Shown: positions 1 through 64,000, counted from the first letter of the stretch. The stretch is 64,000 nucleotides of DNA from an uncultured Candidatus Cloacimonadota bacterium (GCA_964454815.1 CAYVXJ010000009.1:29775-93774); one strand, 5' to 3'. Notes: generated by a model from the sequence alone, not told the origin. Program-made: numbers and translations.

Positions 1-1068
1 TCGATTACGTTCAGTATATATAACTATAGATCTAGTACATATTATCTATATGTTTGGGATGATATTTATAGCGCACCATATCTTTTCCGCTCAGGTGACT
101 GGACGCCCTTGGGACTACTTGGCATAGGTGATGTGAATGGAGATGACATTGATGATAGCCATCTTAGTGAACCGATTTACGGTCAGCATAGTCATTTCAG
201 GAAGATTGTTTTTTTTGGATCCACCGGATTTCCTCAATCTGATTCACTTGTTTTGGAGGAAGATATTTACTATCCAGATCCCCGAGCCTGTGCTTTGGGT
301 GACATCAATGGAGATGGTTACGACGATTTTAGCAGCTACGGTTTGAATGTTCACATGGGCTCAACATATCTATCCCCAAGTCCCAGCTTCACTTTATCGG
401 TTCCATCGATTACTTGGAGTTCTAATAACAACACGGGTTTACGCATGGTCTATGGCGACTTCAATGGCGATGGCTATGATGATATCGTGGCCTCAGACAA
501 TCGTTGGAGCTATTTTGATGGTGACGCTCTACTTTGGTTGGGTGGGCAGAACGTTAACGGAACATATGACCTTCGATTGGCGCATCCACAAGTAGCTGAC
601 AATTTCGGCTATTCAAAAGCTACTGGTGACTTCAACGGCGACGGGCTCTCTGATATAGCAGTATCTGCTCCTTTCTTTTGGGACGAAGGTAGCGGCCACG
701 ATGTTACGCCGGGCAAAGTGTATATTTACGCAGGGAATGCTTCATTGAATGATACAACAGTTAGCAATGATGACGAGCTTGCCCCGGTTATCTCAAACAG
801 CATTAGATTATATCCTAACCCCATCTCAAGGAATGAGCCTGTGGCAAAACTGATCCTATCTGCTTCCGGAACTGGTAGAACTGAGAGAATCGCAGTAGAG
901 ATGTTCAATCTAAAAGGGCAGAAGATCAAGACTTGGGATATAGCTGCGGACAATCCTGGCAGTGGGGTTTATGAAATAGATTGTGAGGGAATCGCTACCG
1001 GCATATACTTCATCCGTGCAAAGCATGGGACTGATAGGCTGGGCAGCACGAAGCTATTGATCTACTAA
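1..1068 (+). CDS. FG-GAP/VCBS-repeat surface protein with T9SS C-terminal sorting domain (5' end outside window)
   Basis: Frame 1 is open from nt 1. The translation matches the C-terminal 355 aa of the downstream paralog. Repeated GDxNGDGxDD (FG-GAP, Ca-binding-like) motifs. C-terminus is LYPNPISRN...MFNLKGQKI...IYFIRA...LLIY, typical of a T9SS CTD. Confidence 0.8.
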   Translation, partial: SITFSIYNYRSSTYYLYVWDDIYSAPYLFRSGDWTPLGLLGIGDVNGDDIDDSHLSEPIYGQHSHFRKIVFFGSTGFPQSDSLVLEEDIYYPDPRACALGDINGDGYDDFSSYGLNVHMGSTYLSPSPSFTLSVPSITWSSNNNTGLRMVYGDFNGDGYDDIVASDNRWSYFDGDALLWLGGQNVNGTYDLRLAHPQVADNFGYSKATGDFNGDGLSDIAVSAPFFWDEGSGHDVTPGKVYIYAGNASLNDTTVSNDDELAPVISNSIRLYPNPISRNEPVAKLILSASGTGRTERIAVEMFNLKGQKIKTWDIAADNPGSGVYEIDCEGIATGIYFIRAKHGTDRLGSTKLLIY

Positions 1069-3060: not shown

Positions 3061-3275
3061 ATTTCATTCCCTTTTCTTCCTCAGATGACTCTCTCATGAC
3101 CCTCTCATCACTCCCTCATCAAGACCAGGGAATTACCTGAGAAACATCTGTGAGAAATCAGACCATTACCAAGAGATTCCCGCGTGATCCCCGCGTGAAG
3201 CCCGCGTGAACCCCGCGTGAGCACGCGGGAATCACATGGGGATCACCCGTGCTTCACACGGGCAAGCTAAGGGAT
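3061..3275 (-). repeat. Composite intergenic element, copy 1 (canonical orientation on minus strand)
   Basis: Contains the 11-nt TCATGAGAG-type array (3079-3125, read as reverse complement), the CAGACCATTACC linker, and a long imperfect dyad (3177-3263) made of CCCGCGTGA units. Homologous to 18313-18515, 38782-38995 and 55655-55795. Confidence 0.85.
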
Positions 3276-3362
3276 TGCATAAGGTATTAGCCGGGATCTT
3301 TGCGTTCGGTAATTTTGAGCTTGACAGAGAAGCCCTTTACAGGGGCTATAATATCCCTCGAT

Positions 3363-5828
3363 ATGATAAGAAGATTTCTGCTTGTTTTCTCGCTTATAAT
3401 ACTGTCGCTGAGTGTGTTCCTTCCGCTCGGAGCGACAGGTTCGAAGGTCATCCTCAAGGTTTTTGAGCTGCCTGATCCGCGTAAGACAGACGCCTACACG
3501 ACGGCAAATCTGGCGGTGATCAAGGCTTTTCGGGAGAAATACCCCAATATCGAGCTCAGGGCATATTCCGGGATCAAGATCGAAGGGATGGATCTCGATG
3601 CGGGTCCGCTCATGGCAATTGCCGGGGGAGTCGCGCCGGACGTCATCTATGTGAATTTCCGCCAAAGCGATACCTATATCCAAAATGGCTTTCTCTATCC
3701 GCTGGATCGCTTTGTGAGCAAGATGAGCCCGCAGGAACTCCGGCTCCGGGTCGAGAAGCCCGTCTGGCAAGTGATCCGTCGCACCAAGGGCGGAGACAAG
3801 GCAGAGCGCGTCTGGGCAATGCCCTATGAGACGCTTGTCCGGGTCTTGATCTACCGCAAGGATGTGTTTAAGAAAGCAGGATTAGACCCAAACCGGGCAC
3901 CGCAGGATTGGGATGAATTCCTGCGCTATGCCAGGCTCTTTACCGATCCCAAGACCGGAAGCTGGGGCACCGTCCTCGCCTCAGGGCCTCAGGCAGCGTA
4001 TGATTGGCTGCCTTTCCTCTGGGGTGCAGGTGGAGATGCCGTCACCTATGACCCCGTCAAGCAGGAATGGAAAGCGAGTTTTGCCGGAAAAGCCGGGGTT
4101 ACGGCTATGGACTTTTACTTGAAGTTAGCCACGAGCAAATGGACGGATGGCGAGGGTAAGCCACAGACCGGTTTTGCCATTCGCGAGGGTGAATGGGGCT
4201 ATATGTGGCAGGAAGGCAAGATCGCGATGCGGATGGATTATCTCTCCCAGCAGAACATGGGCGGAAGCTATGATCCAAATCTCTACGGCTTTGCACCTGC
4301 TCCCCGTGGTCCTTCCGGCAGAGGTGGAAGCGAGATCAATTGCCGCATGATGGGGATCTTCTCGGGCGCCGGGATCAGCAACAATTCCGGCTTAGGAAAG
4401 CGGGATGCGGAAGCGGTCCGCGACGCGGCATGGAAATACATCAGCTTTTATGACAGTGAGGAAGCGCGTCGGATCCGGATGAAGATCATGGTGGCAAATG
4501 GTTTTGGCAAGATGCAAAACCCGGTCTTTCTCAAGCGTTATGGCTATGGCGAATATCTGAAATATGCTCCCGCAGGCTGGCTCGAGACCTTTGAACGGGC
4601 TCTGATCGACGGCAAACCGGAGCCTTTTGGCAATAACTGCCAGAAGGTCTATGAGTTTATGACCTATCCCCTGGAAGAGCTGGTATCACTGGCTCTGAGC
4701 GGGAAACTCAGCGAAGATCCGGCTGTACGTCAGGCGCAGATCTCCCGCATCCTCAGTGCCGGTGAAAAGCGCACCAACGCGGAGATGATCGGACGCATCG
4801 AGCCAAAGGTCAAAGCCTTTCGGGAACGCCTCGCGATGCTCATCGCGTTCTTTATCATGATCTCCTTTATCCTTGTGCTGTGGCGGGTATGGAGACTGCT
4901 AACCCCGGAGCTGAGGGTGGTCAGTACCACCCGGAATAAGAACCTGCTCTGGATAGTGCTGCTCACCGCTCCCGCGGTCATCACCGTATTCGTCTGGAAG
5001 TATCTGCCGATGATCAACGGAAGTTTGATGGCTTTCAAAGCCTATAACATCGCCGGAGCTTCCCCCTGGGTCGGCTTTGCGAACTTTGCGGAAGTGCTTT
5101 TTGACCCCTCTTGGTGGTCATCGGTGCTCAAGACGCTTTACTATATGCTGCTTTCGCTCGGGCTGGGCTTCGTCCCGCCCATTGCTCTCGCCATCCTCCT
5201 GCAAGAGGTTTCCCATGCGAAGATGATCTATCGGGTCGTCTATTACCTCCCTGCGGTGATCAGTGGCGTCATCGTCATCTATCTCTGGAAACTGCTCTAC
5301 AACCCCTCGGATGCAGGGGCTTTGAACCAGATCCTCCTGGCTCTGGGCTTGCCAAAGAGCATGTGGATCAAGGATGAGACTCTGGCTATGCTCTGCGTCG
5401 TCATCCCGACGATCTGGGCAGGGATGGGACCGGGTAGCCTCATCTACCTTGCCGCGCTCAAGAACATCCCCAATGAGCTGTATGAAGCCGCTGAGATCGA
5501 TGGTGCCGGCTTCCTCAAAAAGCTCCACTATATCGTCATCCCCTCCCTCAGACCGCTCATCATCATCCAGTTCATCGCCGCGTTTATCGTTGCTGCTCAA
5601 TCCAGCGACTTCATATTGGTCATGACTTTTGGCGGGCCAAACGAGGCGACACGGGTCGCAGACCTGATGATCTTTGAAAAGGCATATCTCTATCTCAAAT
5701 TCGGAGTTGCGACGACGATGGCTTGGCTCCTCAGCCTGCTCCTCATGGGCTTTACCGTCTTGCAGATCAAGCACGTCTCAAAGCTGGAGTTTAGAGCAGT
5801 GAATTCCGACAAGGGAGAGCAAAAATGA
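3363..5828 (+). CDS. ABC sugar transporter: family-1 solute-binding domain fused to MalF-type permease
   Basis: About 490 aa of SBP-like sequence follows a signal/anchor helix. Next come a linker TM helix, six TM helices and the EAA loop (YEAAEIDGAGFLKKLHYIVIPSLRP). The ORF track starts at TTG 3300; I prefer ATG 3363 (MIRRFLLVFSL...). The start is uncertain because there is no clear SD. Confidence 0.75.
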   Translation: MIRRFLLVFSLIILSLSVFLPLGATGSKVILKVFELPDPRKTDAYTTANLAVIKAFREKYPNIELRAYSGIKIEGMDLDAGPLMAIAGGVAPDVIYVNFRQSDTYIQNGFLYPLDRFVSKMSPQELRLRVEKPVWQVIRRTKGGDKAERVWAMPYETLVRVLIYRKDVFKKAGLDPNRAPQDWDEFLRYARLFTDPKTGSWGTVLASGPQAAYDWLPFLWGAGGDAVTYDPVKQEWKASFAGKAGVTAMDFYLKLATSKWTDGEGKPQTGFAIREGEWGYMWQEGKIAMRMDYLSQQNMGGSYDPNLYGFAPAPRGPSGRGGSEINCRMMGIFSGAGISNNSGLGKRDAEAVRDAAWKYISFYDSEEARRIRMKIMVANGFGKMQNPVFLKRYGYGEYLKYAPAGWLETFERALIDGKPEPFGNNCQKVYEFMTYPLEELVSLALSGKLSEDPAVRQAQISRILSAGEKRTNAEMIGRIEPKVKAFRERLAMLIAFFIMISFILVLWRVWRLLTPELRVVSTTRNKNLLWIVLLTAPAVITVFVWKYLPMINGSLMAFKAYNIAGASPWVGFANFAEVLFDPSWWSSVLKTLYYMLLSLGLGFVPPIALAILLQEVSHAKMIYRVVYYLPAVISGVIVIYLWKLLYNPSDAGALNQILLALGLPKSMWIKDETLAMLCVVIPTIWAGMGPGSLIYLAALKNIPNELYEAAEIDGAGFLKKLHYIVIPSLRPLIIIQFIAAFIVAAQSSDFILVMTFGGPNEATRVADLMIFEKAYLYLKFGVATTMAWLLSLLLMGFTVLQIKHVSKLEFRAVNSDKGEQK

Positions 5829-18186: not shown

Positions 18187-18215
18187 AGCTCCGGATGTCT
18201 CCGGAGCTTTTTTTA
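18187..18215 (+). terminator. Rho-independent terminator
   Basis: AGCTCCGGA-TGTC-TCCGGAGCT, a 9-bp stem followed by a T7 run, 20 nt after the porin stop. Confidence 0.85.
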
Positions 18216-18312: not shown

Positions 18313-18515
18313 TCTCTTAAGCCTTACCTAAGCATTCCCGCATAAAGCGCGTGTGACTCCCGTGTGATTCCCGCGTGCTCACGCGGGAGTCACGCGGGCT
18401 TCACGCGGGGATCACGCGGGAATCTCTTGGTGATGGTCTGAAATTTCGCTGATCTTTCTCAGGTCTTCCTCAGATCGCGATGAGGGAGTCATCTGGGAGT
18501 CATGAGAGGAAGACC
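18313..18515 (+). repeat. Composite intergenic element, copy 2 (canonical orientation on plus strand)
   Basis: CTTAAGCCTTACCTAAG box, dyad 18348-18424 (CCCGTGTGA units facing 4 x TCACGCGGG), AATCTCTTGGTGATGGTCTGA linker, then a GTCATCTGGGA/GTCATGAGAGG array. Confidence 0.85.
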
Positions 18516-18726: not shown

Positions 18727-19983
18727 ATGAATCGGTCAGGTTTGATCAGGCTTTGTATGGTAGTGACACTATTAGCAAGTTGCACCCTTGCGAGGGCAGT
18801 TGAGCGGAGTGTTTACAAGCGGCTTAGCTCTACGCATTACGAGTATTACTCTTCGCTCGATGATGCCGGTGGAGCTTCTGATGTTCAATACTACTATACT
18901 AGCCCGAATTCTATGCTGCTTGGTTCTGTGACATACCATGCTGTATCGGATCTCGAGGGTGAGACTAATCTTGCCTATAACTTCCAAAGCTCTATTACCA
19001 ATACTCCATCCGGACGGCAGGTAGATTACTTCGCTACTCCGATCGGGGATGGCATTAGCGCTTTCTCTCTGATGTATGTCCTGGACAGTCAGAACCGAGT
19101 GTTACATAGCAGACACATCGACTATGGAGCTTCCCCGGAGGATACAGTCAGTGTGTCTGAGATCTTCCGGCGTTATAATGCATACGGCTACGCCGATAGC
19201 ATCTATAGCGTTAGTCGGACAGGTAATGAGACCTTTGAAAGCTGCAGTGTAAGCAGTTTTAACAATTCAATGTTATCGGCAACCACTTTGTTCTATAAGA
19301 ATAATGGGGCGTGGAAACCATCCTGGCGATATACATTCTCATATCCGAGCAACCCGACCGTATTGCCGGAGTTTATCCGCTGGGACAATCTGAGCAATCA
19401 AATCCTCTTCGAATCGATCAGTTCTTACGCCTCTGCCTATAACCCCAAAGTCATCCCTTCCGAGATAGTATTTGAGGTTCGTGACAATGGGGTTTGGACT
19501 GAGATCAACGGCGAGCGCATGTTCCAGACATTAGTTGATGGCGTTGTCTTAATGAGGTTCAGTTCACAGTTGTTGTCCGGCTCGGGATCCTACCGTGCAA
19601 ATCAATCCGGGGATATTATCGGTTATTCAGATGGTTGGAGCTATGGGATGGATCATGGATCACGCACTTACGCAATAAACTGGGAATCTGTAGTGTTAAA
19701 TGACGAGGAAGAGGTCATCGCAATAGATCCTTTGCCGCGTGCATACCCCAATCCCTTCAAGGAATCAACCATGATCAGGCTGGAAAATAGCTCGAAGTTC
19801 GGTTCGAAGGTATCGATCTACAATCTGCGGGGACAGCTTGTCCGGCAATGGGATAATGTGTGGGGTAACGAAGTCTTTTGGGATGGCAAAGACGGAAGGT
19901 CTATGGCTGTGCCAAGCGGAGTATATCTGATCAAATATGAGGCAGATGAGAAGGTTCGTTCCGTCAAGGTTATGCGGTACTAA
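18727..19983 (+). CDS. Secreted hypothetical protein with T9SS C-terminal sorting domain (paralog A)
   Basis: AGGAG 8 nt upstream of ATG 18727. Signal peptide MNRSGLIRLCMVVTLLASCTLARA. CTD is YPNPFKESTMI...IYNLRGQLV...GVYLIKY. No recognisable catalytic motif. Confidence 0.7.
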   Translation: MNRSGLIRLCMVVTLLASCTLARAVERSVYKRLSSTHYEYYSSLDDAGGASDVQYYYTSPNSMLLGSVTYHAVSDLEGETNLAYNFQSSITNTPSGRQVDYFATPIGDGISAFSLMYVLDSQNRVLHSRHIDYGASPEDTVSVSEIFRRYNAYGYADSIYSVSRTGNETFESCSVSSFNNSMLSATTLFYKNNGAWKPSWRYTFSYPSNPTVLPEFIRWDNLSNQILFESISSYASAYNPKVIPSEIVFEVRDNGVWTEINGERMFQTLVDGVVLMRFSSQLLSGSGSYRANQSGDIIGYSDGWSYGMDHGSRTYAINWESVVLNDEEEVIAIDPLPRAYPNPFKESTMIRLENSSKFGSKVSIYNLRGQLVRQWDNVWGNEVFWDGKDGRSMAVPSGVYLIKYEADEKVRSVKVMRY

Positions 19984-20045
19984 GGTAAGTAGCTTACTGT
20001 TTTATACTATACAGTATTAGGTCTTTTATGAAAGGAGAAGTTATT

Positions 20046-21299
20046 ATGAAAGGATCAGGTTTGATAAAGATCTGGCTATCACTTGTGATAGTCATCAGTT
20101 CTACATACTTGATAGGCACTGAGAGAAGTGTTTATAAGAGACTTGTGATGTATTTGAAAAGCTCAAACTCGTCTTTAATGGGAAGTTGGGGAACTGATAC
20201 GTTCTATAACTACTTGAATGGCAATTCAATTCTCGTTAGCTCCTCAGTTATCAACACATATTCGGACATTGAGGGTAATAATTCGACATCGTATGAGATT
20301 CAGAGCTCGATAATCGAAAATGAAACCGGACGACAGATAGACTATACTGCTACTATCGCGGGTGAGGCAGAGCCGGATTACACATATATGTTCATCTTGG
20401 ATCGACAGAGCAGAGTAGTCCAAAGCCGGTACTTTCACGATTCAAATCCTGTGTATCCGTCTACAACAACCCGGGATATCTTCCGTCGATATAACGCTGC
20501 AGGATACGCAGATAGCGTGTATGCCAAGCATACAATCGGGACGACCGTCTATGAACAGTATTTCAAGCGCAACTTCGTAGATTCCATGCTGCACAACTGC
20601 TTGGTCTATTACAGAACAACAGGTGAGTGGATCCCCCAATACAGATATACATTCACGTATGCGGCTAATCCCGTTGTTCTACCTGAACTCGTCCGTTGGG
20701 ATTCACTTATCAACCAGACAATGAATGCGGATTTTCTATACTACGAGCAATGCTTTAATCCGAAAGTACTACCATCGTTTATATTGCGGGAACAGAAGAC
20801 TGGCGGTGTCTGGTATGTCGATGATTCTGTTCAATACACCGAGCAGCTTGATGGTAATCGGGTAATCATGTCCGGTCAAGCATCGACAGGTATGAGCGTT
20901 TCAACTATTACGGCAAATTCAGCAGGAGATATAATCATGATATCAAGCTCCTGGTCTGATATTGATGAAGCCGGAGGAAGCTCCAATGCTATGTATTGGG
21001 ATTCAGTCGTCGCGAACGATGACGACACAGCTCCAGAAGTCAATCCCACGCTCTGCGCATATCCTAATCCGTTCCGGGGATCGACCATGATATCTGTTGG
21101 AAAGGAGTCTTTAGCCGGATCGGAGATCGCGATCTATAACCTGCGTGGGCAGCTTGTACGAAGCTGGAAAGACTTGCGGACAGATGATATCACGTGGGAT
21201 GGTAAGGATGAGAGGTCAATGGATGTACCGAGTGGAGTGTATTTGATCAAGTACAGCAAGGGTTCACAAGCGCAGGTTGGAAAGATCTTGCGATACTGA
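20046..21299 (+). CDS. Secreted hypothetical protein with T9SS C-terminal sorting domain (paralog B)
   Basis: AGGAG at 20033-20037, 8 nt before ATG 20046. Shares ERSVYKRL, FRRYNA-GYADS-Y and LPE-IRWD blocks and the CTD with 18727-19983. Confidence 0.7.
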   Translation: MKGSGLIKIWLSLVIVISSTYLIGTERSVYKRLVMYLKSSNSSLMGSWGTDTFYNYLNGNSILVSSSVINTYSDIEGNNSTSYEIQSSIIENETGRQIDYTATIAGEAEPDYTYMFILDRQSRVVQSRYFHDSNPVYPSTTTRDIFRRYNAAGYADSVYAKHTIGTTVYEQYFKRNFVDSMLHNCLVYYRTTGEWIPQYRYTFTYAANPVVLPELVRWDSLINQTMNADFLYYEQCFNPKVLPSFILREQKTGGVWYVDDSVQYTEQLDGNRVIMSGQASTGMSVSTITANSAGDIIMISSSWSDIDEAGGSSNAMYWDSVVANDDDTAPEVNPTLCAYPNPFRGSTMISVGKESLAGSEIAIYNLRGQLVRSWKDLRTDDITWDGKDERSMDVPSGVYLIKYSKGSQAQVGKILRY

Positions 21300-38645: not shown

Positions 38646-38677
38646 AAGCGGTTGCAGTTGCAACCGCTTTTTCTTTT
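38646..38677 (+). terminator. Rho-independent terminator
   Basis: AAGCGGTTGC-AGTT-GCAACCGCTT, a 10-bp stem followed by TTTTCTTTT. Confidence 0.85.
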
Positions 38678-38781: not shown

Positions 38782-38995
38782 CTTTAAGCATCACCTAAGA
38801 AAACCCGCGTCATGCCCGTGTGACTCCCGTGTGATTCCCGCGTGCTCACGCGGGAGTCACGCGGGGATCACGCGGGGATCACGCGGGAATCTCTTGATAA
38901 TGGTCTGATATCTCACTGACATTTCTCAGGTATTTCCCTTATCTCGATGAGGGGGTCATGAGAGAGTCATCTGGGAATCATCTGAGAAAGAAGAG
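38782..38995 (+). repeat. Composite intergenic element, copy 3 (canonical orientation on plus strand; best preserved)
   Basis: TTTAAGCATCACCTAAG box. Dyad 38804-38887 (about 41 paired positions). AATCTCTTGATAATGGTCTGA linker. Three-unit array GTCATGAGAGA / GTCATCTGGGA / ATCATCTGAGA at 11-nt spacing. Confidence 0.9.
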
Positions 38996-55654: not shown

Positions 55655-55795
55655 TTCCCGGTCTGAACTCAGACCATTACCTAAAGATTCCCGCGTGATC
55701 CCCGCGTGAAGCCCGCGTGATTCCCGCGTGAGCACGCGGGAATCACACGGGGATCACTCGGGTATGACACGGGCTTTCCTTGGTGAAGCTAAGAC
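55655..55795 (-). repeat. Composite intergenic element, copy 4 (canonical on minus strand; linker-distal array missing)
   Basis: CAGACCATTACCTAAAGATT linker followed by dyad 55687-55774. The element abuts the peptidase stop, so the TCATGAGAG-type array is absent. Confidence 0.85.
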
Positions 55796-55919
55796 TATAC
55801 ATTGAGATGGGATAGTCGTTGCTTTCGGCTCATTGGTTGTATTCTCTACTGCTCTCCACTTTGTCCCTATTGCTCGCTTCCTCTCATCTTCGGTTATTCC
55901 CTCAGTCTTCTTGTATGAA

Positions 55920-55974
55920 GTTCAAGAAAAGTACAAGTTGAGTACAAGATGAGTACAAGTTGAGTACAAGCGGA
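55920..55974. repeat. Five tandem 11-nt units (GTACAAGTTGA type)
   Basis: GTTCAAGAAAA GTACAAGTTGA GTACAAGATGA GTACAAGTTGA GTACAAGCGGA, read directly from the sequence. Confidence 0.9.
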
Positions 55975-60780: not shown

Positions 60781-62016
60781 TTATTCCTTTATTAGTTCCG
60801 TCGCCTGGGTCATCCCTTGCCGCAGGTTTACTCCCTGCAGAAGTATCCACCCCAGAACGAAGAATATGATCAAACTCAGTATGGACAGACGGATCGATCC
60901 GGTCTTATGAGCTATCCATCCATATAATATAGGACCGATTATCGCAGACAATCTCCCTGTCAAGGCATAAAATCCGAAGAACTCCGCTTGCTTGGATACC
61001 GGAGTCAGGAGAGAGAGCATCGTGCGGCTATTCGCTTGGCTCGCTCCGATAGCCAGTCCGGCAAGCAAGCCAACGAGATAATATTCGCTTGCAGTGCGGC
61101 AGAAATACGCCCAGACGACTACCCCGATCCAGATCAGCAGCGAGATGTTCAATGAGTGCTTAGCGCTGTATCTGTCGCTCAGCCAGCCAAAGAATCCAGC
61201 ACCGATGATGGAGGTGACCTGCGCGATGAGGAAGTAGTAGATCATATCTATCGTCGTCATCTTAAAACGCTGGATACCGTATATCGAAGCGAAGGCTATG
61301 ACGGTCGTGATCCCGTCATTGTAGATGAAATAGCTGACGATAAAGCGCATCAATTGCGGCAGCCTGCGGATGTTCTTCAGCGAAAAGGCTATCCGCTGAT
61401 AGGCGACGCGGTAATAGTTCGTACGTACCGACGGGCGCTTATATTCCTTCAACCAGAGCAAGGTGAAGAGCGAAAAGATAAAGAGATGCAAAGCTATCGC
61501 GGGAAAGACGTATCGCACATTCTTGCTGACCAGAACAAGGCTATATCCCAAAGAGATGAGCCCGCCCACATAACCGAGAGCCCAGCCATAGCCGGAGACC
61601 TTCCCGATATCCTCCTGCTTGGCGATGTCCGGCAAGAAAGAGTCGTAGAAGACGTTCGCGCTGTTAAAACCAAAATTGGCTATGATGAAAAAGAGCATCC
61701 CCTGAAAGACATCCCCGGCACGCACAAAATAGAGTAGAGCTGTAAAGAGCACGGTCAGATAGCAATTGATAAAGAGCATGCGCTTCTTTGCCCGGGAATA
61801 GTCCGCAACTGCGCCAAGGATCGGAGCGGAGATCGCGACCAAAGCCATAGAAATACCGATAGCCCTACCCCAGAGAAGCTCGCCATATCCCGGATCACCG
61901 ACGACCACTTTATTCACGAAATACGCGGAATAGACGACCGATACGATAATGGTAGTAAAAGCCGAATTAGCAAAGTCATACATCATCCAGCCGATGAGCC
62001 CCTTGTTCAGCTTCAT
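60781..62016 (-). CDS. MFS transporter (UMF1/Atg22-like family)
   Basis: The N-terminal GWMMYDFANSAFTTII motif is typical of UMF1. About 12 TM helices. Confidence 0.7.
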   Translation of the reverse strand: MKLNKGLIGWMMYDFANSAFTTIIVSVVYSAYFVNKVVVGDPGYGELLWGRAIGISMALVAISAPILGAVADYSRAKKRMLFINCYLTVLFTALLYFVRAGDVFQGMLFFIIANFGFNSANVFYDSFLPDIAKQEDIGKVSGYGWALGYVGGLISLGYSLVLVSKNVRYVFPAIALHLFIFSLFTLLWLKEYKRPSVRTNYYRVAYQRIAFSLKNIRRLPQLMRFIVSYFIYNDGITTVIAFASIYGIQRFKMTTIDMIYYFLIAQVTSIIGAGFFGWLSDRYSAKHSLNISLLIWIGVVVWAYFCRTASEYYLVGLLAGLAIGASQANSRTMLSLLTPVSKQAEFFGFYALTGRLSAIIGPILYGWIAHKTGSIRLSILSLIIFFVLGWILLQGVNLRQGMTQATELIKE

Positions 62017-63092
62017 TTCCGCTCTCCCATTTGCATGACCTCCAGACCGCTCCAGATATTCTTCAGCTCGGGCTTGGGGGTAGTAATGAAGACCTGATAC
62101 CTGTCCCCGATCAAATCTCTGATCACCGCGGTGTGACCCGCATCCAGCTCGGCGAAGATATCGTCAAAGAGCATGATCGGCTTGATCCCCGTCAGCTCCT
62201 CGATCAGCCTTGCCTGGATCAGCTTGATCAGGATGACCGAGACTCTCTTTTGCCCCTGCGAACTAAAGGGCTTTTGCCGGGAATCATTGAGCATAAACTC
62301 ATAGTCATCGAGATGCGGCCCGATCAACGTCCTTTGCAGGACAAACTCCTTTGGCTCAAAGCTCTTCAGCAGAGCGAGGAACTTCCCCGGATCTTCCGCG
62401 CCGGACTCCTCATCTCCCGCTGTGCTCCGGTATTCGATCCGCATTTCCCGGATAGTTTCGGACAGGGATCGGTATTCTTTTTCCAGTCGCTGATTCATAA
62501 GCTCCAGATATCGCTTGCGGAAGCTGATGACATGAAGTGCGGACTCCGTGAACCGACCGTCCCAGACCCGCTTTTCACCATTGGAAACAGATGCCTTGAG
62601 CAGGGAATTGCGTTGTTCCACAATATGCAGATATTGATGCAGGACATGGATATACTCCGGGAAGAGCTGAGAAACGGCAAGATCGAAATACTGCCTGCGG
62701 GAGCGGGGACTTCCTGATATGATGTTCAGATCCTCCGGAGCGCAATATATGACCTTGATCCTCTCCATCAGACTGCTAAGGTTGCGGATGGTCTCATTAT
62801 CTATGCGGAGAAGCTTACGCCGTTCCCCATAAGACAGCCCGATCCCTGTTTGCAGCCCGGAATCAAGACAAAAATCCGCGCTGATGCCAAACCCGGATGA
62901 GCCAAACCGCAGCAACTCCGTATCGCTATGATAGCGAATGGATTTGCCGATCCCACAGTAGGCGATAGCCTCGAGCAGATTGGTCTTTCCGCTGCCGTTA
63001 TCCCCGATTATCAGGCAACCGGCAGCGGAAAAAGCATATCTGGCTTCTGAGTAGTTTCTAAAATTCTCTAATGCGATCTGCAGGAGATGCAA
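62013..63092 (-). CDS. recF: DNA replication and repair protein RecF
   Basis: LENFRNY...GDNGSGKTNLLEAI Walker A, SQGQKR signature and LFDDIFAELD Walker B. Located directly downstream of dnaN. Confidence 0.92.
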   Translation of the reverse strand: MHLLQIALENFRNYSEARYAFSAAGCLIIGDNGSGKTNLLEAIAYCGIGKSIRYHSDTELLRFGSSGFGISADFCLDSGLQTGIGLSYGERRKLLRIDNETIRNLSSLMERIKVIYCAPEDLNIISGSPRSRRQYFDLAVSQLFPEYIHVLHQYLHIVEQRNSLLKASVSNGEKRVWDGRFTESALHVISFRKRYLELMNQRLEKEYRSLSETIREMRIEYRSTAGDEESGAEDPGKFLALLKSFEPKEFVLQRTLIGPHLDDYEFMLNDSRQKPFSSQGQKRVSVILIKLIQARLIEELTGIKPIMLFDDIFAELDAGHTAVIRDLIGDRYQVFITTPKPELKNIWSGLEVMQMGERK

Positions 63093-63096
63093 TGCG

Positions 63097-64000
63097 CTAT
63101 GACCGAAGCGGCATTAACAGGAAGGTGATTTCCTGGTTCTCGGGTTGGATCTCATTGTAGATCATCATCGGTTCTTTGGACGAGCCAAGCAGGATCTTGA
63201 CCTTTTCCGTGTCTATAACGTCCAGAATACTGAGCATGAACTTATAGTTAAAGGCAATAGAGGTCGGTGAGCCCTGGAAGCTGTAGTCATCCATAAACTG
63301 CTTCGCATCCCCGGTGTCGCGGTTGGTCGTATTGATCTCGAACTTATCCTGCTCGATCTCAAATCTGGTACGCAGGTTATCATCCGGAGCGATCAAAGCT
63401 ACGCGTTTGATAGCGGTCTTGAGTGCTTCTTTGTTGATGATCAGGCAGTTCGGAAGATCATGCATAAAGGCTTTTTGATATTCGGGATATTTATGCTCGA
63501 TGATGTGAGTGTAGATCGTATATTCGCCATAGACGAACATCATCTTGTTCTGTTCGATAACGAGCTGAAGCTCCTTGATCTGCGGATCGAAGATCTTTTG
63601 CAGGAAGTTCAAAGTCTTGACCGGGATGATCTTTTCGGTATAGCTTTCTTTATTTTCGGCGAAGATATTGTCCTCGGTCTGTTCCTGTTCGGAAGCATTA
63701 TTGCGGATAGAGCTGTTTCGCACCTTGATCTCGGCGACTTTGCGTCCATCAGTGGCTGCCATGAGATGCTCGTTCTCATGAATCTTCCAGCAAACACCGG
63801 TCAGCACGGCGCGATTCGCATCCGAAGAGACCGCAAAACTGGTCTTGGAGACCATCTTCTGGAAAAGCTCGGCATCGATTGTCACGGCATTGGTGAGGCT
63901 CGCGACGGGAAGCAAGGGGAAAAGCGAATGATCGGCGCAGAGGATCTTGAAATCGATCTTGCCGCATTGAATGATGAGCATATCCTCATTCTTCCAGATG
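63097..64000 (-). CDS. dnaN: DNA polymerase III beta sliding clamp (N-terminus outside window)
   Basis: The frame stays open upstream of Met 63981, through to the window edge. C-terminal ...ITFLLMPLRS is typical of DnaN. dnaN-recF synteny supports the call. Confidence 0.85.
   Translation of the reverse strand, partial: IWKNEDMLIIQCGKIDFKILCADHSLFPLLPVASLTNAVTIDAELFQKMVSKTSFAVSSDANRAVLTGVCWKIHENEHLMAATDGRKVAEIKVRNSSIRNNASEQEQTEDNIFAENKESYTEKIIPVKTLNFLQKIFDPQIKELQLVIEQNKMMFVYGEYTIYTHIIEHKYPEYQKAFMHDLPNCLIINKEALKTAIKRVALIAPDDNLRTRFEIEQDKFEINTTNRDTGDAKQFMDDYSFQGSPTSIAFNYKFMLSILDVIDTEKVKILLGSSKEPMMIYNEIQPENQEITFLLMPLRS

Follow-up and report, generated by a model that had tools for sequence, protein, structure and literature searches.

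The 64,000-nt stretch of DNA analysed here (hereafter, the window) is part of the 557-kb contig Ga0248168_1000003 of JGI metagenome 3300022666, and the organism is a Cloacimonadota bacterium of an anaerobic-digester-type metagenome. Its intergenic regions house several copies of a repeated element, one of which (copy 3, the element under study) is located between the intrinsic terminators of two convergent genes. The surrounding genes include housekeeping and carbohydrate-use genes, those of a V-type ATPase, UvrA and BamA, dnaN-recF and the genes of several T9SS cargo proteins. Copy 4 also lies between convergent genes and abuts the stop codon of an M1 aminopeptidase gene; the flanking aminopeptidase has homologues labelled Candidatus Cloacimonadota, Cloacimonas or Syntrophosphaera. 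Copies 1 and 2 have the same tandem-gene context in opposite orientation: copy 1 is antisense to both neighbouring genes, and copy 2 is found downstream of a terminator and upstream of the next gene, which starts at position 18727.

The initial annotation had reported four copies, occupying the four largest intergenic gaps of the window. All four are present at the positions given there, with a pairwise identity of 80–88% in a repeat search, and the gaps that contain them (560, 472, 404 and 364 nt) are the largest ones; the fifth-largest gap (324 nt) is occupied by a Moco riboswitch and carries no copy. A search of the window with an HMM built from the full-length copies retrieved copies 1–4 and no further copy. 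The sequence TCACGCGGGNNTCACGCGGG, which consists of two tandem TCACGCGGG units, was found 18 times with up to 2 mismatches (0.00 expected), and all 16 exact TCACGCGGG sites in the window are inside the copies, at a spacing of exactly 11 nt. A fifth copy is located just past the window end, upstream of dnaN, and no more copies were found in ~9 kb beyond on both sides, giving a total of five in ~76 kb. All five are intergenic, as expected of REP-like extragenic multi-copy repeats, and they occur in either orientation. Confinement to four sites with no conservation in related genomes, which the annotation had named as a refuting outcome, is thus contradicted both by the fifth copy and by orthologous copies in relatives (see below).

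Each full-length copy is a non-coding double hairpin of ~215 bp, the arms of which are built from 11-base units (Table 1). The parts listed in the initial annotation were found with the sequences and the 11-nt spacing that it gave, but its division of the element into two independent arrays plus a separate dyad does not hold, as these are both arms and the tip of one hairpin. The units CCCGTGTGA(nn) and TCACGCGGG(nn) are reverse complements of each other, apart from a T that faces G at unit position 5; because of this complementarity, the degenerate array, the dyad and the perfect array form, respectively, the 5′ arm, the tip and the 3′ arm of a single hairpin of ~40 bp (hairpin 1). In the five copies of this genome, 33–38 of its 41 positions are paired, and the 8 + 8 dyad of the tip is invariant in all five. 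The fraction of paired cells is 82.5%, compared to 25–57% when the partner arm is slid. The short box at the 5′ end, also noticed earlier, acquires a role in this arrangement: its CCTAAG pairs with CTCTTGG of the linker and closes hairpin 1. Likewise, the GTCATswGrGA units do repeat every 11 nt; they are not a free-standing array, however, but the 3′ arm of a second hairpin, the 5′ arm of which includes TTTCTCAGGT and the centre of which is CCCT..TC/GATGAGGG. The 11-nt period is exact in every copy, and the number of units changes by whole units (copy 5 has six in its right arm). In copy 3, the 2-nt spacers of the right arm are AG, GA and GA, and the arm also carries four G3-4 tracts. The calculated folding energy is −80 to −114 kcal/mol as RNA (z of about −7.8 on either strand) and −42 to −56 kcal/mol with DNA parameters.

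Table 1. Repeated elements of the window and neighbouring features. Positions are counted from the first nucleotide of the window; E-values are those of the window search with the HMM made from full-length copies.
Feature	Position	Strand	Remarks
Copy 3, full-length (element under study)	38782..38995	+	HMM E=3.7e-76
Copy 3, 5′ box TTAAGCATCACCTAAG	38786..38799	+	CCTAAG (38794-38799) is the 5′ strand of the hairpin 1 basal stem
Copy 3, hairpin 1 left (5′) arm	38804..38836	+	three 11-nt units CCCGYGTSA+2; degenerate inverted right-arm unit
Copy 3, hairpin 1 tip	38837..38854	+	perfect dyad CCCGCGTG-CT-CACGCGGG
Copy 3, hairpin 1 right (3′) arm	38846..38887	+	four invariant TCACGCGGG 9-mers, 11-nt spacing
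Copy 3, linker AATCTCTTGATAATGGTCTGA, conserved	38888..38908	+	CTCTTG is the 3′ strand of the basal stem
Copy 3, hairpin 2 5′ arm	38909..38945	+	includes TTTCTCAGGT (38922-38931)
Copy 3, hairpin 2 3′ arm	38946..38995	+	GATGAGGG, three 11-nt units GTCATSWGRGA (38953-38986), then GAAAGAA
Terminator beside copy 3	38646-38669	+	one of two convergent genes
Terminator beside copy 3	39068-39045	-	the other convergent gene
Copy 1, full-length	3061..3285 (HMM match 3063-3292)	-	HMM E=6.5e-78
Copy 1, hairpin 1 arms	3179-3262	-	
Copy 1, linker	3158-3178	-	
Copy 1, hairpin 2	3063-3157	-	
Terminator upstream of copy 2	18187-18208		
Copy 2, full-length	18313..18515	+	HMM E=1.8e-72
Copy 2, hairpin 1 arms	18337-18420	+	
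Copy 2, linker	18421-18441	+	
Copy 2, hairpin 2	18442-18515	+	
Copy 4, hairpin 1 only	55655..55795	-	HMM E=2.9e-38
Copy 4, hairpin 1 arms	55690-55773	-	
Copy 4, linker	55669-55689	-	
Copy 5, past the window end	64549-64779	-	L026 2545-2775
Moco/tungsten riboswitch RF01055	29628-29750	+	64.8 bits, E=2.7e-13
11-nt tandem array AGTACAAGATG x4.7	55919-55970		between mtaB and copy 4
dnaN-recF	62013-64000		L026 2480-4227

The earlier statement that the element is non-coding was confirmed, all six frames being closed by stop codons, and coding sequence was rejected on this ground. No promoter-like site was found before any copy, no U-tract terminator after any copy, and no sequence common to the copies upstream of the 5′ box. 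An intrinsic terminator is a G+C-rich hairpin with a U-run immediately behind it, and no T-run is present after either hairpin; the terminators flagged beside copies 2 and 3 are separate from the elements. In agreement with the initial annotation, no transposase, integrase, Cas or reverse transcriptase gene was detected in the window and ~12 kb of flanking sequence.

Of the eight genes next to the window copies, three encode T9SS cargo proteins, compared to 5 of all 46 genes (hypergeometric p=0.03). Just downstream of copy 2, two adjacent T9SS-sorted genes (window 18727-21299 versus L034 2193-4756) share only ~55% DNA identity with their counterparts in a close relative, while the flanking genes and spacers are 88–99% identical; this gene pair is therefore a hypervariable surface-protein locus. 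Three tandem FG-GAP/T9SS paralogues (window 1-681 versus 1868-2548; L043 1809-7111) share 95–97% identical stretches, upstream regions included, and the third is followed by copy 1. In another relative, an extra T9SS-sorted gene is present between the copy 4 orthologue and mtaB (L030 10021-11358). It seems that T9SS cargo genes are readily gained, lost or replaced at sites adjoining the elements. A search with a T9SS tail for paralogues in the same genome retrieved unrelated short fragments only. Other features of the region are listed at the end of Table 1. The AGTACAAGATG array, which differs from the units of the element, contains CTTGTAC/TACAAG and is partly self-complementary, and TACAAG repeats occupy the equivalent place in L030. 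Downstream of the RF01055 riboswitch are an unannotated 270-aa gene and the gene of a TonB-dependent receptor. The dnaN-recF genes have a methyltransferase gene upstream rather than dnaA; the dnaN leader after copy 5 contains two DnaA-box-like motifs, GTGGATCAC and TTGATCCAC, and the GC-skew profile of the window revealed no clear origin.

The two arms of hairpin 1 are conserved very unequally. All 17 right-arm 9-mers are invariant, i.e., there are 0 mismatches at 153 positions, compared to 14 at 135 positions in the left arm (p=1.7e-5). In the right arms of copies 1–4, variation is restricted to spacer columns (four of eight) and affects none of the 35 9-mer columns; in the left arms, 6 of 35 9-mer columns are variable.

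Related organisms were found to carry the element at the same places. In a close relative (L034), copy 2 is located at the same position, and the element (94% identical; its hairpin 1, 96.6%) has been subject to stronger constraint than the flanking spacers (88–89%). MUNK22-1, a more distant relative in which the aminopeptidase is 71% identical, has a full-length diverged copy at the copy 2 site (L032) and, at the copy 4 site (L030, also L036/L037), a copy that consists of hairpin 1 only, truncated like copy 4. The sites of copies 2 and 4 have thus remained occupied at ~71% protein identity, as expected from vertical persistence. A third lineage has a short, decayed copy (L038). Relatives at ~60% identity (L031, L039 and L041) have no member of the family in the orthologous spacer, where unrelated repeats are present instead, and the family is limited to one narrow group of uncultured bacteria within Cloacimonadota. 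The spacers after the aminopeptidase gene in these ~60%-identity relatives (L031 7150-7630 and L039 12930-13235) contain long perfect hairpins, an 11-nt array (CATACCGCTTG x3.9), a 54-nt tandem duplication and 7–8-nt repeats, and repeat-rich spacers may be general in Cloacimonadota. All four short-read contigs of the same strain or of nearly identical ones (L027, L029, L035 and L044) terminate within the array; the practical consequence is that the element breaks short-read assemblies of these organisms.

The copies cluster by genome and not by locus. Paralogues within the window genome are 84–97% identical in hairpin 1 and the two copies of the relative, L032 and L030, are 79% identical, compared to 75% for the orthologous pair copy 2/L032 and 71% for copy 4/L030. 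The window genome has TCACGCGGG as its repeat unit; in MUNK22-1, most units are TCACACGGG. Since the orthologue of copy 4 is equally truncated and the unit of copy 4 is specific to its genome, the evidence points to homogenisation in situ, by selection and/or gene conversion, rather than to re-insertion. Gene conversion alone would homogenise the spacers too; the 9-mer itself therefore appears to be selected. In a 14.9-kb contig of a 99.95% identical strain (L044), all seven substitutions fall within 57 nt (window 3234-3290 versus L044 1-90), in the left arm and 5′ box of copy 1 and the adjoining flank, and three of the seven match the state of copy 5. This cluster is either gene conversion in progress or a chimeric contig end.

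Since the arrays are two arms of long hairpins, the element belongs with palindromic extragenic repeats. The initial annotation had set REP and BIME elements aside, and in this respect it has to be revised, as they are the closest known kind. REPINs are hairpin-forming inverted doublets that are extragenic and vertically persistent (PMC3116915; bioRxiv 10.1101/2021.07.10.451892). The element resembles them in being extragenic and multi-copy, in the folding of two conserved, mutually inverted blocks into a long hairpin as single-stranded DNA or RNA, and in its long vertical inheritance at fixed extragenic sites with genome-specific sequences. In contrast to REPINs, where each arm is one REP of ~20–25 nt, the arms here are made of tandem 11-nt units; only one arm is conserved (0/153 versus 14/135 mismatches), a second, different hairpin is present, and compensatory changes, described as common in REPINs, are few. 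Thus, the hairpin itself is there, but not the conservation of both inverted REPs with common compensatory changes. The element lacks REP hallmarks such as a short unit that is palindromic in itself and a conserved tetranucleotide at the 5′ end, and no RAYT (Y1/HUH transposase) gene was found in the window and ~12 kb of flanks. REPIN-RAYT systems have been described mainly in Proteobacteria, whereas the element studied here is from Cloacimonadota. With BIMEs, the bacterial interspersed mosaic elements of enterobacteria, which are known or proposed to dock IHF and gyrase, the element shares a composite build of intergenic modules, palindromic units in alternating orientation, conserved linkers and a location between transcription units; unit size and sequence are unrelated, and 11-bp phasing and one-arm invariance are not BIME features.

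BOX (pneumococcal, boxA-boxB(n)-boxC), ERIC and Correia elements are modular intergenic repeats of 100–300 bp with a variable internal tandem module and a strong predicted stem-loop. The element matches them in modularity, in the variable number of tandem modules and in the strong predicted stem-loop, but there is no sequence relation, the tandem module is 11 nt long and is itself the stem, and the terminal inverted repeats and target duplications that would make it Correia-like were not found. The phased right arm also recalls parC of plasmid R1, in which about one ParR dimer binds per 11-bp iteron (PMC2241845): both have 4–6 direct repeats of exactly 11 bp, i.e., one helical turn, in two sets around a centre. 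However, parC is a single plasmid locus beside parM/parR, its two sets being direct repeats of one another, while here there are at least five dispersed chromosomal copies with inverted sets, one of them degenerate, and no adjacent partner genes. Compared to plasmid-type iteron or centromere arrays, the helical phasing is the same (exactly 11 nt, 4–6 units), but instead of a single locus by rep or par genes there are copies among housekeeping genes.

Two exclusions made in the initial annotation, those of a CRISPR array and of an Rfam family, were upheld. A CRISPR array has repeats of 23–50 nt, unique spacers of similar length and, usually, cas genes; the element has 11-nt units with 2-nt spacers and no cas genes. 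As to a MITE, no terminal inverted repeats or target duplications were found, nor a parent transposase in ~76 kb. The only match in the window above the Rfam threshold is the Moco riboswitch elsewhere, and the element itself retrieved only generic models of miRNA-precursor hairpins, at 15–28 bits against thresholds of 70–90.

Genome contigs were also scanned with a pattern of 2.5 tandem units. The scan retrieved 25 loci, mostly in high-GC genomes and with 2.5–4 identical 11-mers, and no Cloacimonadota among the matches. Because the search pattern itself selected them, neither these loci nor a viral match (L028, from IMG/VR) were counted as relatives: the 25 loci, which lack the rest of the element, were treated as slippage arrays, and the viral match is inside an ORF. 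Arrays in a rumen Bacteroidales MAG, RUG552, and in a Chthoniobacteraceae MAG were rejected as well, as they have no inverted arm, linker or second hairpin. RUG552 contains tandem arrays of the same 9-mer (L010 4895-4937, L011 4101-4144 and L019 127-199), as does the Chthoniobacteraceae MAG (L013 and L024); the arrays in these two unrelated genomes are AATCACGCGGG x3–7 and TCTCACGCGGG x4 to more than 11, and although each genome has several loci, they are probably independent 11-nt minisatellites. In L028, four GAATCACGCGG units (3744-3790) are in frame in an ORF, after the N-terminal domain and before a KD-rich low-complexity stretch; the N-terminal domain presumably resembles a replisome organiser, and the arrangement is reminiscent of phage initiator genes that contain origin iterons. 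A metagenome scan with the 20-nt hairpin tip retrieved no match, and a second metagenome scan only the known relative and one decayed copy. Several further identities were considered and rejected: a hammerhead ribozyme (CUGAUGAG occurs in one relative only, with no Rfam match), DnaA boxes or CRP sites (the 9-mer fits neither), integron attC sites (the copies are not in a cassette array), retron or toxin-antitoxin RNA repeats (no reverse transcriptase or toxin gene and a wrong unit size) and replication-strand polarity (orientations are mixed and GC skew is uninformative across the window).

We tentatively propose that the elements form a lineage-specific family of extragenic palindromes akin to REPs, BIMEs and REPINs, whose phased 9-mers dock a putative lineage-specific protein. 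In hairpin 1, the 3′ arm presents 4–6 invariant TCACGCGGG 9-mers with free 2-bp spacers, the 5′ arm being the same unit inverted and decaying. A sequence-specific protein, encoded at some other place in the genome, would dock at the 9-mers; it may assemble from the dyad, each helical turn of duplex DNA or of the extruded hairpin taking up one protomer. The copies would be inherited vertically at fixed places between transcription units and kept alike by selection on the 9-mer plus gene conversion between copies. As to the role of the complex, one may guess at an architectural or insulating site between transcription units, or at a substrate of a hairpin-recognising HUH-type enzyme like those acting on REPs. 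The suggestion of the initial annotation that the units are iterons or multimeric binding sites appears to fit the strongest pattern in the sequence, invariant right-arm 9-mers separated by variable 2-nt spacers. Both the docking protein and the function of its complex we infer; no candidate binding protein was identified in ~76 kb, and no exact 9-mers are present in the window outside the elements, which thus gives no independent sign of binding-site use elsewhere. Binding of duplex DNA along both arms would predict a conserved left arm as well, whereas this arm decays; since simple duplex binding leaves this unexplained, the core may be the inner hairpin with the 3′ repeats. The protein-docking reading also has to face the fact that, as RNA, the canonical strand of each copy is the more stably folded one by 5–18 kcal/mol, and that the C-G / U.G / U-A series at unit position 5 also fits a single-stranded or RNA function.

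These last observations bring into consideration a structured noncoding RNA or an RNA-level cis element, in which transcription of the canonical strand would yield an RNA with two long hairpins, the 3′ arm being functional (for instance, as a sponge with multiple sites or a substrate of RNase III) and the 5′ arm serving only to pair with it. The MFEs of the canonical and the other strand (−99.7 versus −81.5, −109.1 versus −96.0, −113.9 versus −102.8 and −80.3 versus −75.3) agree with this, as does unit position 5, which is C-G, U.G or U-A but never C.A across copies and species; one compensated change from G-C to A-U is found in the outer unit of L032, the consensus hairpin of domain 2 is rich in G.U pairs on the canonical strand, and a conserved arm opposite a degenerate one resembles hairpin precursors with one functional strand. 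Yet the lack of promoter-like sites, U-tract terminators and common sequence upstream of the 5′ box speaks against transcription, copies 2 and 3 are outside the flanking transcription units, orientation relative to neighbours is not fixed, and Rfam gave no match. Covariation is weak: the paired fraction is 82.5% compared to 82.1% after shuffling, both sides change in only 5 of 40 pairs while 15 pairs depart by broken cells only, the domain 2 covariation term is −0.33 kcal/mol, and the covariation score was reached in 7 of 500 shuffles by a measure known to be exceeded by related sequences without structure. Moreover, wobbles in relatives are no commoner on the canonical strand (1 versus 3, 5 versus 6 and 3 versus 3), and changes in the left arms of the window genome include four G-to-A events that break RNA pairs. 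We consider an RNA function unlikely, while giving it appreciable weight.

A comparable, and likewise low, probability is assigned to a non-autonomous mobile element of the MITE or foldback kind, or its decaying remains, with no host function; its hairpins and sub-repeats would be transposase-binding ends, and the similarity of copies would reflect past transposition bursts. Dispersed, multi-copy, intergenic repeats in both orientations, one of them truncated, are what such an element would leave; the breaks of short-read assemblies inside the array, the decayed copies in relatives (L030 and L038), the narrow clade and the absence from the orthologous spacer of ~60%-identity relatives are in line with it. 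This reading overlaps with the REPIN idea, which requires a RAYT gene. No terminal inverted repeats or target-site duplications were found at the boundaries, where only copy 3 has a weak complementarity of 6–7 nt, no transposase gene is present in ~76 kb, and there was no match in plasmid or phage records. Instead of presence/absence polymorphism, both comparable sites are occupied in both species (2/2, a small sample), and since these are the sites of copies 2 and 4, with copy 4 equally truncated, an insertion burst cannot explain the genome-specific unit of copy 4. Purifying selection on the 9-mers relative to the spacers is also unexpected for a dead element. Much less probable still are local operator arrays, in which the phased repeats would bind a regulator, such as a winged-helix response regulator, that controls adjacent genes, particularly those of T9SS-secreted surface proteins. 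OmpR/PhoB family regulators typically bind in tandem to direct repeats with 11-bp spacing, T9SS cargo genes are enriched next to the copies, and copy 2 is upstream of the hypervariable T9SS gene pair; however, copies 3 and 4, between convergent genes, have no promoter to control, copy 5 is upstream of dnaN, the whole 215-bp composite and not merely a site is repeated, and no solitary 9-mers occur near other promoters of the window. We give the least credence to purely structural DNA with no dedicated protein, i.e., a cruciform or G-quadruplex acting on supercoiling, replication or read-through. The right arm always has at least four G3-4 tracts with 7–8-nt loops, matched by C tracts in the left arm, and the near-perfect palindrome is stable with DNA parameters (see above), but a quadruplex needs the G tracts alone, while all nine unit positions are invariant and the spacers variable; the hairpin would compete with the quadruplex for the same G tracts, and the outer stem decays.

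Returning to REP-like palindromes that dock a protein, a more specific version can be formulated, which we regard as rather improbable. The elements would be chromosome-wide platforms of phased iterons, coated by a putative clade-specific, filament-forming DNA-binding protein that assembles from the dyad with one protomer per helical turn and whose specificity has co-evolved with the 9-mer (TCACGCGGG versus TCACACGGG). If true, this would be a previously unknown kind of chromosomal organiser or insulator between transcription units.

We conclude that the element is a real, uncatalogued relative of the repetitive palindromic elements of other bacteria; no catalogued match was found in Rfam, plasmid and phage records or the searchable literature. 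Much is known about the dispersed palindromic repeats of Proteobacteria and of a few Gram-positive bacteria, and in the searchable literature we found none described for Cloacimonadota, an uncultured phylum abundant in anaerobic digesters. Three traits are unusual: the arms consist of 11-bp iterons in helical phase; of the two arms, one is frozen and the other drifting; and the same loci are occupied across species, yet copies are closer to their genome-mates than to their orthologues. With this combination, the family is well suited to telling gene conversion apart from selection exerted by a co-evolving binding protein, and the element yields a defined probe (4xTCACGCGGG) for finding the putative partner protein.
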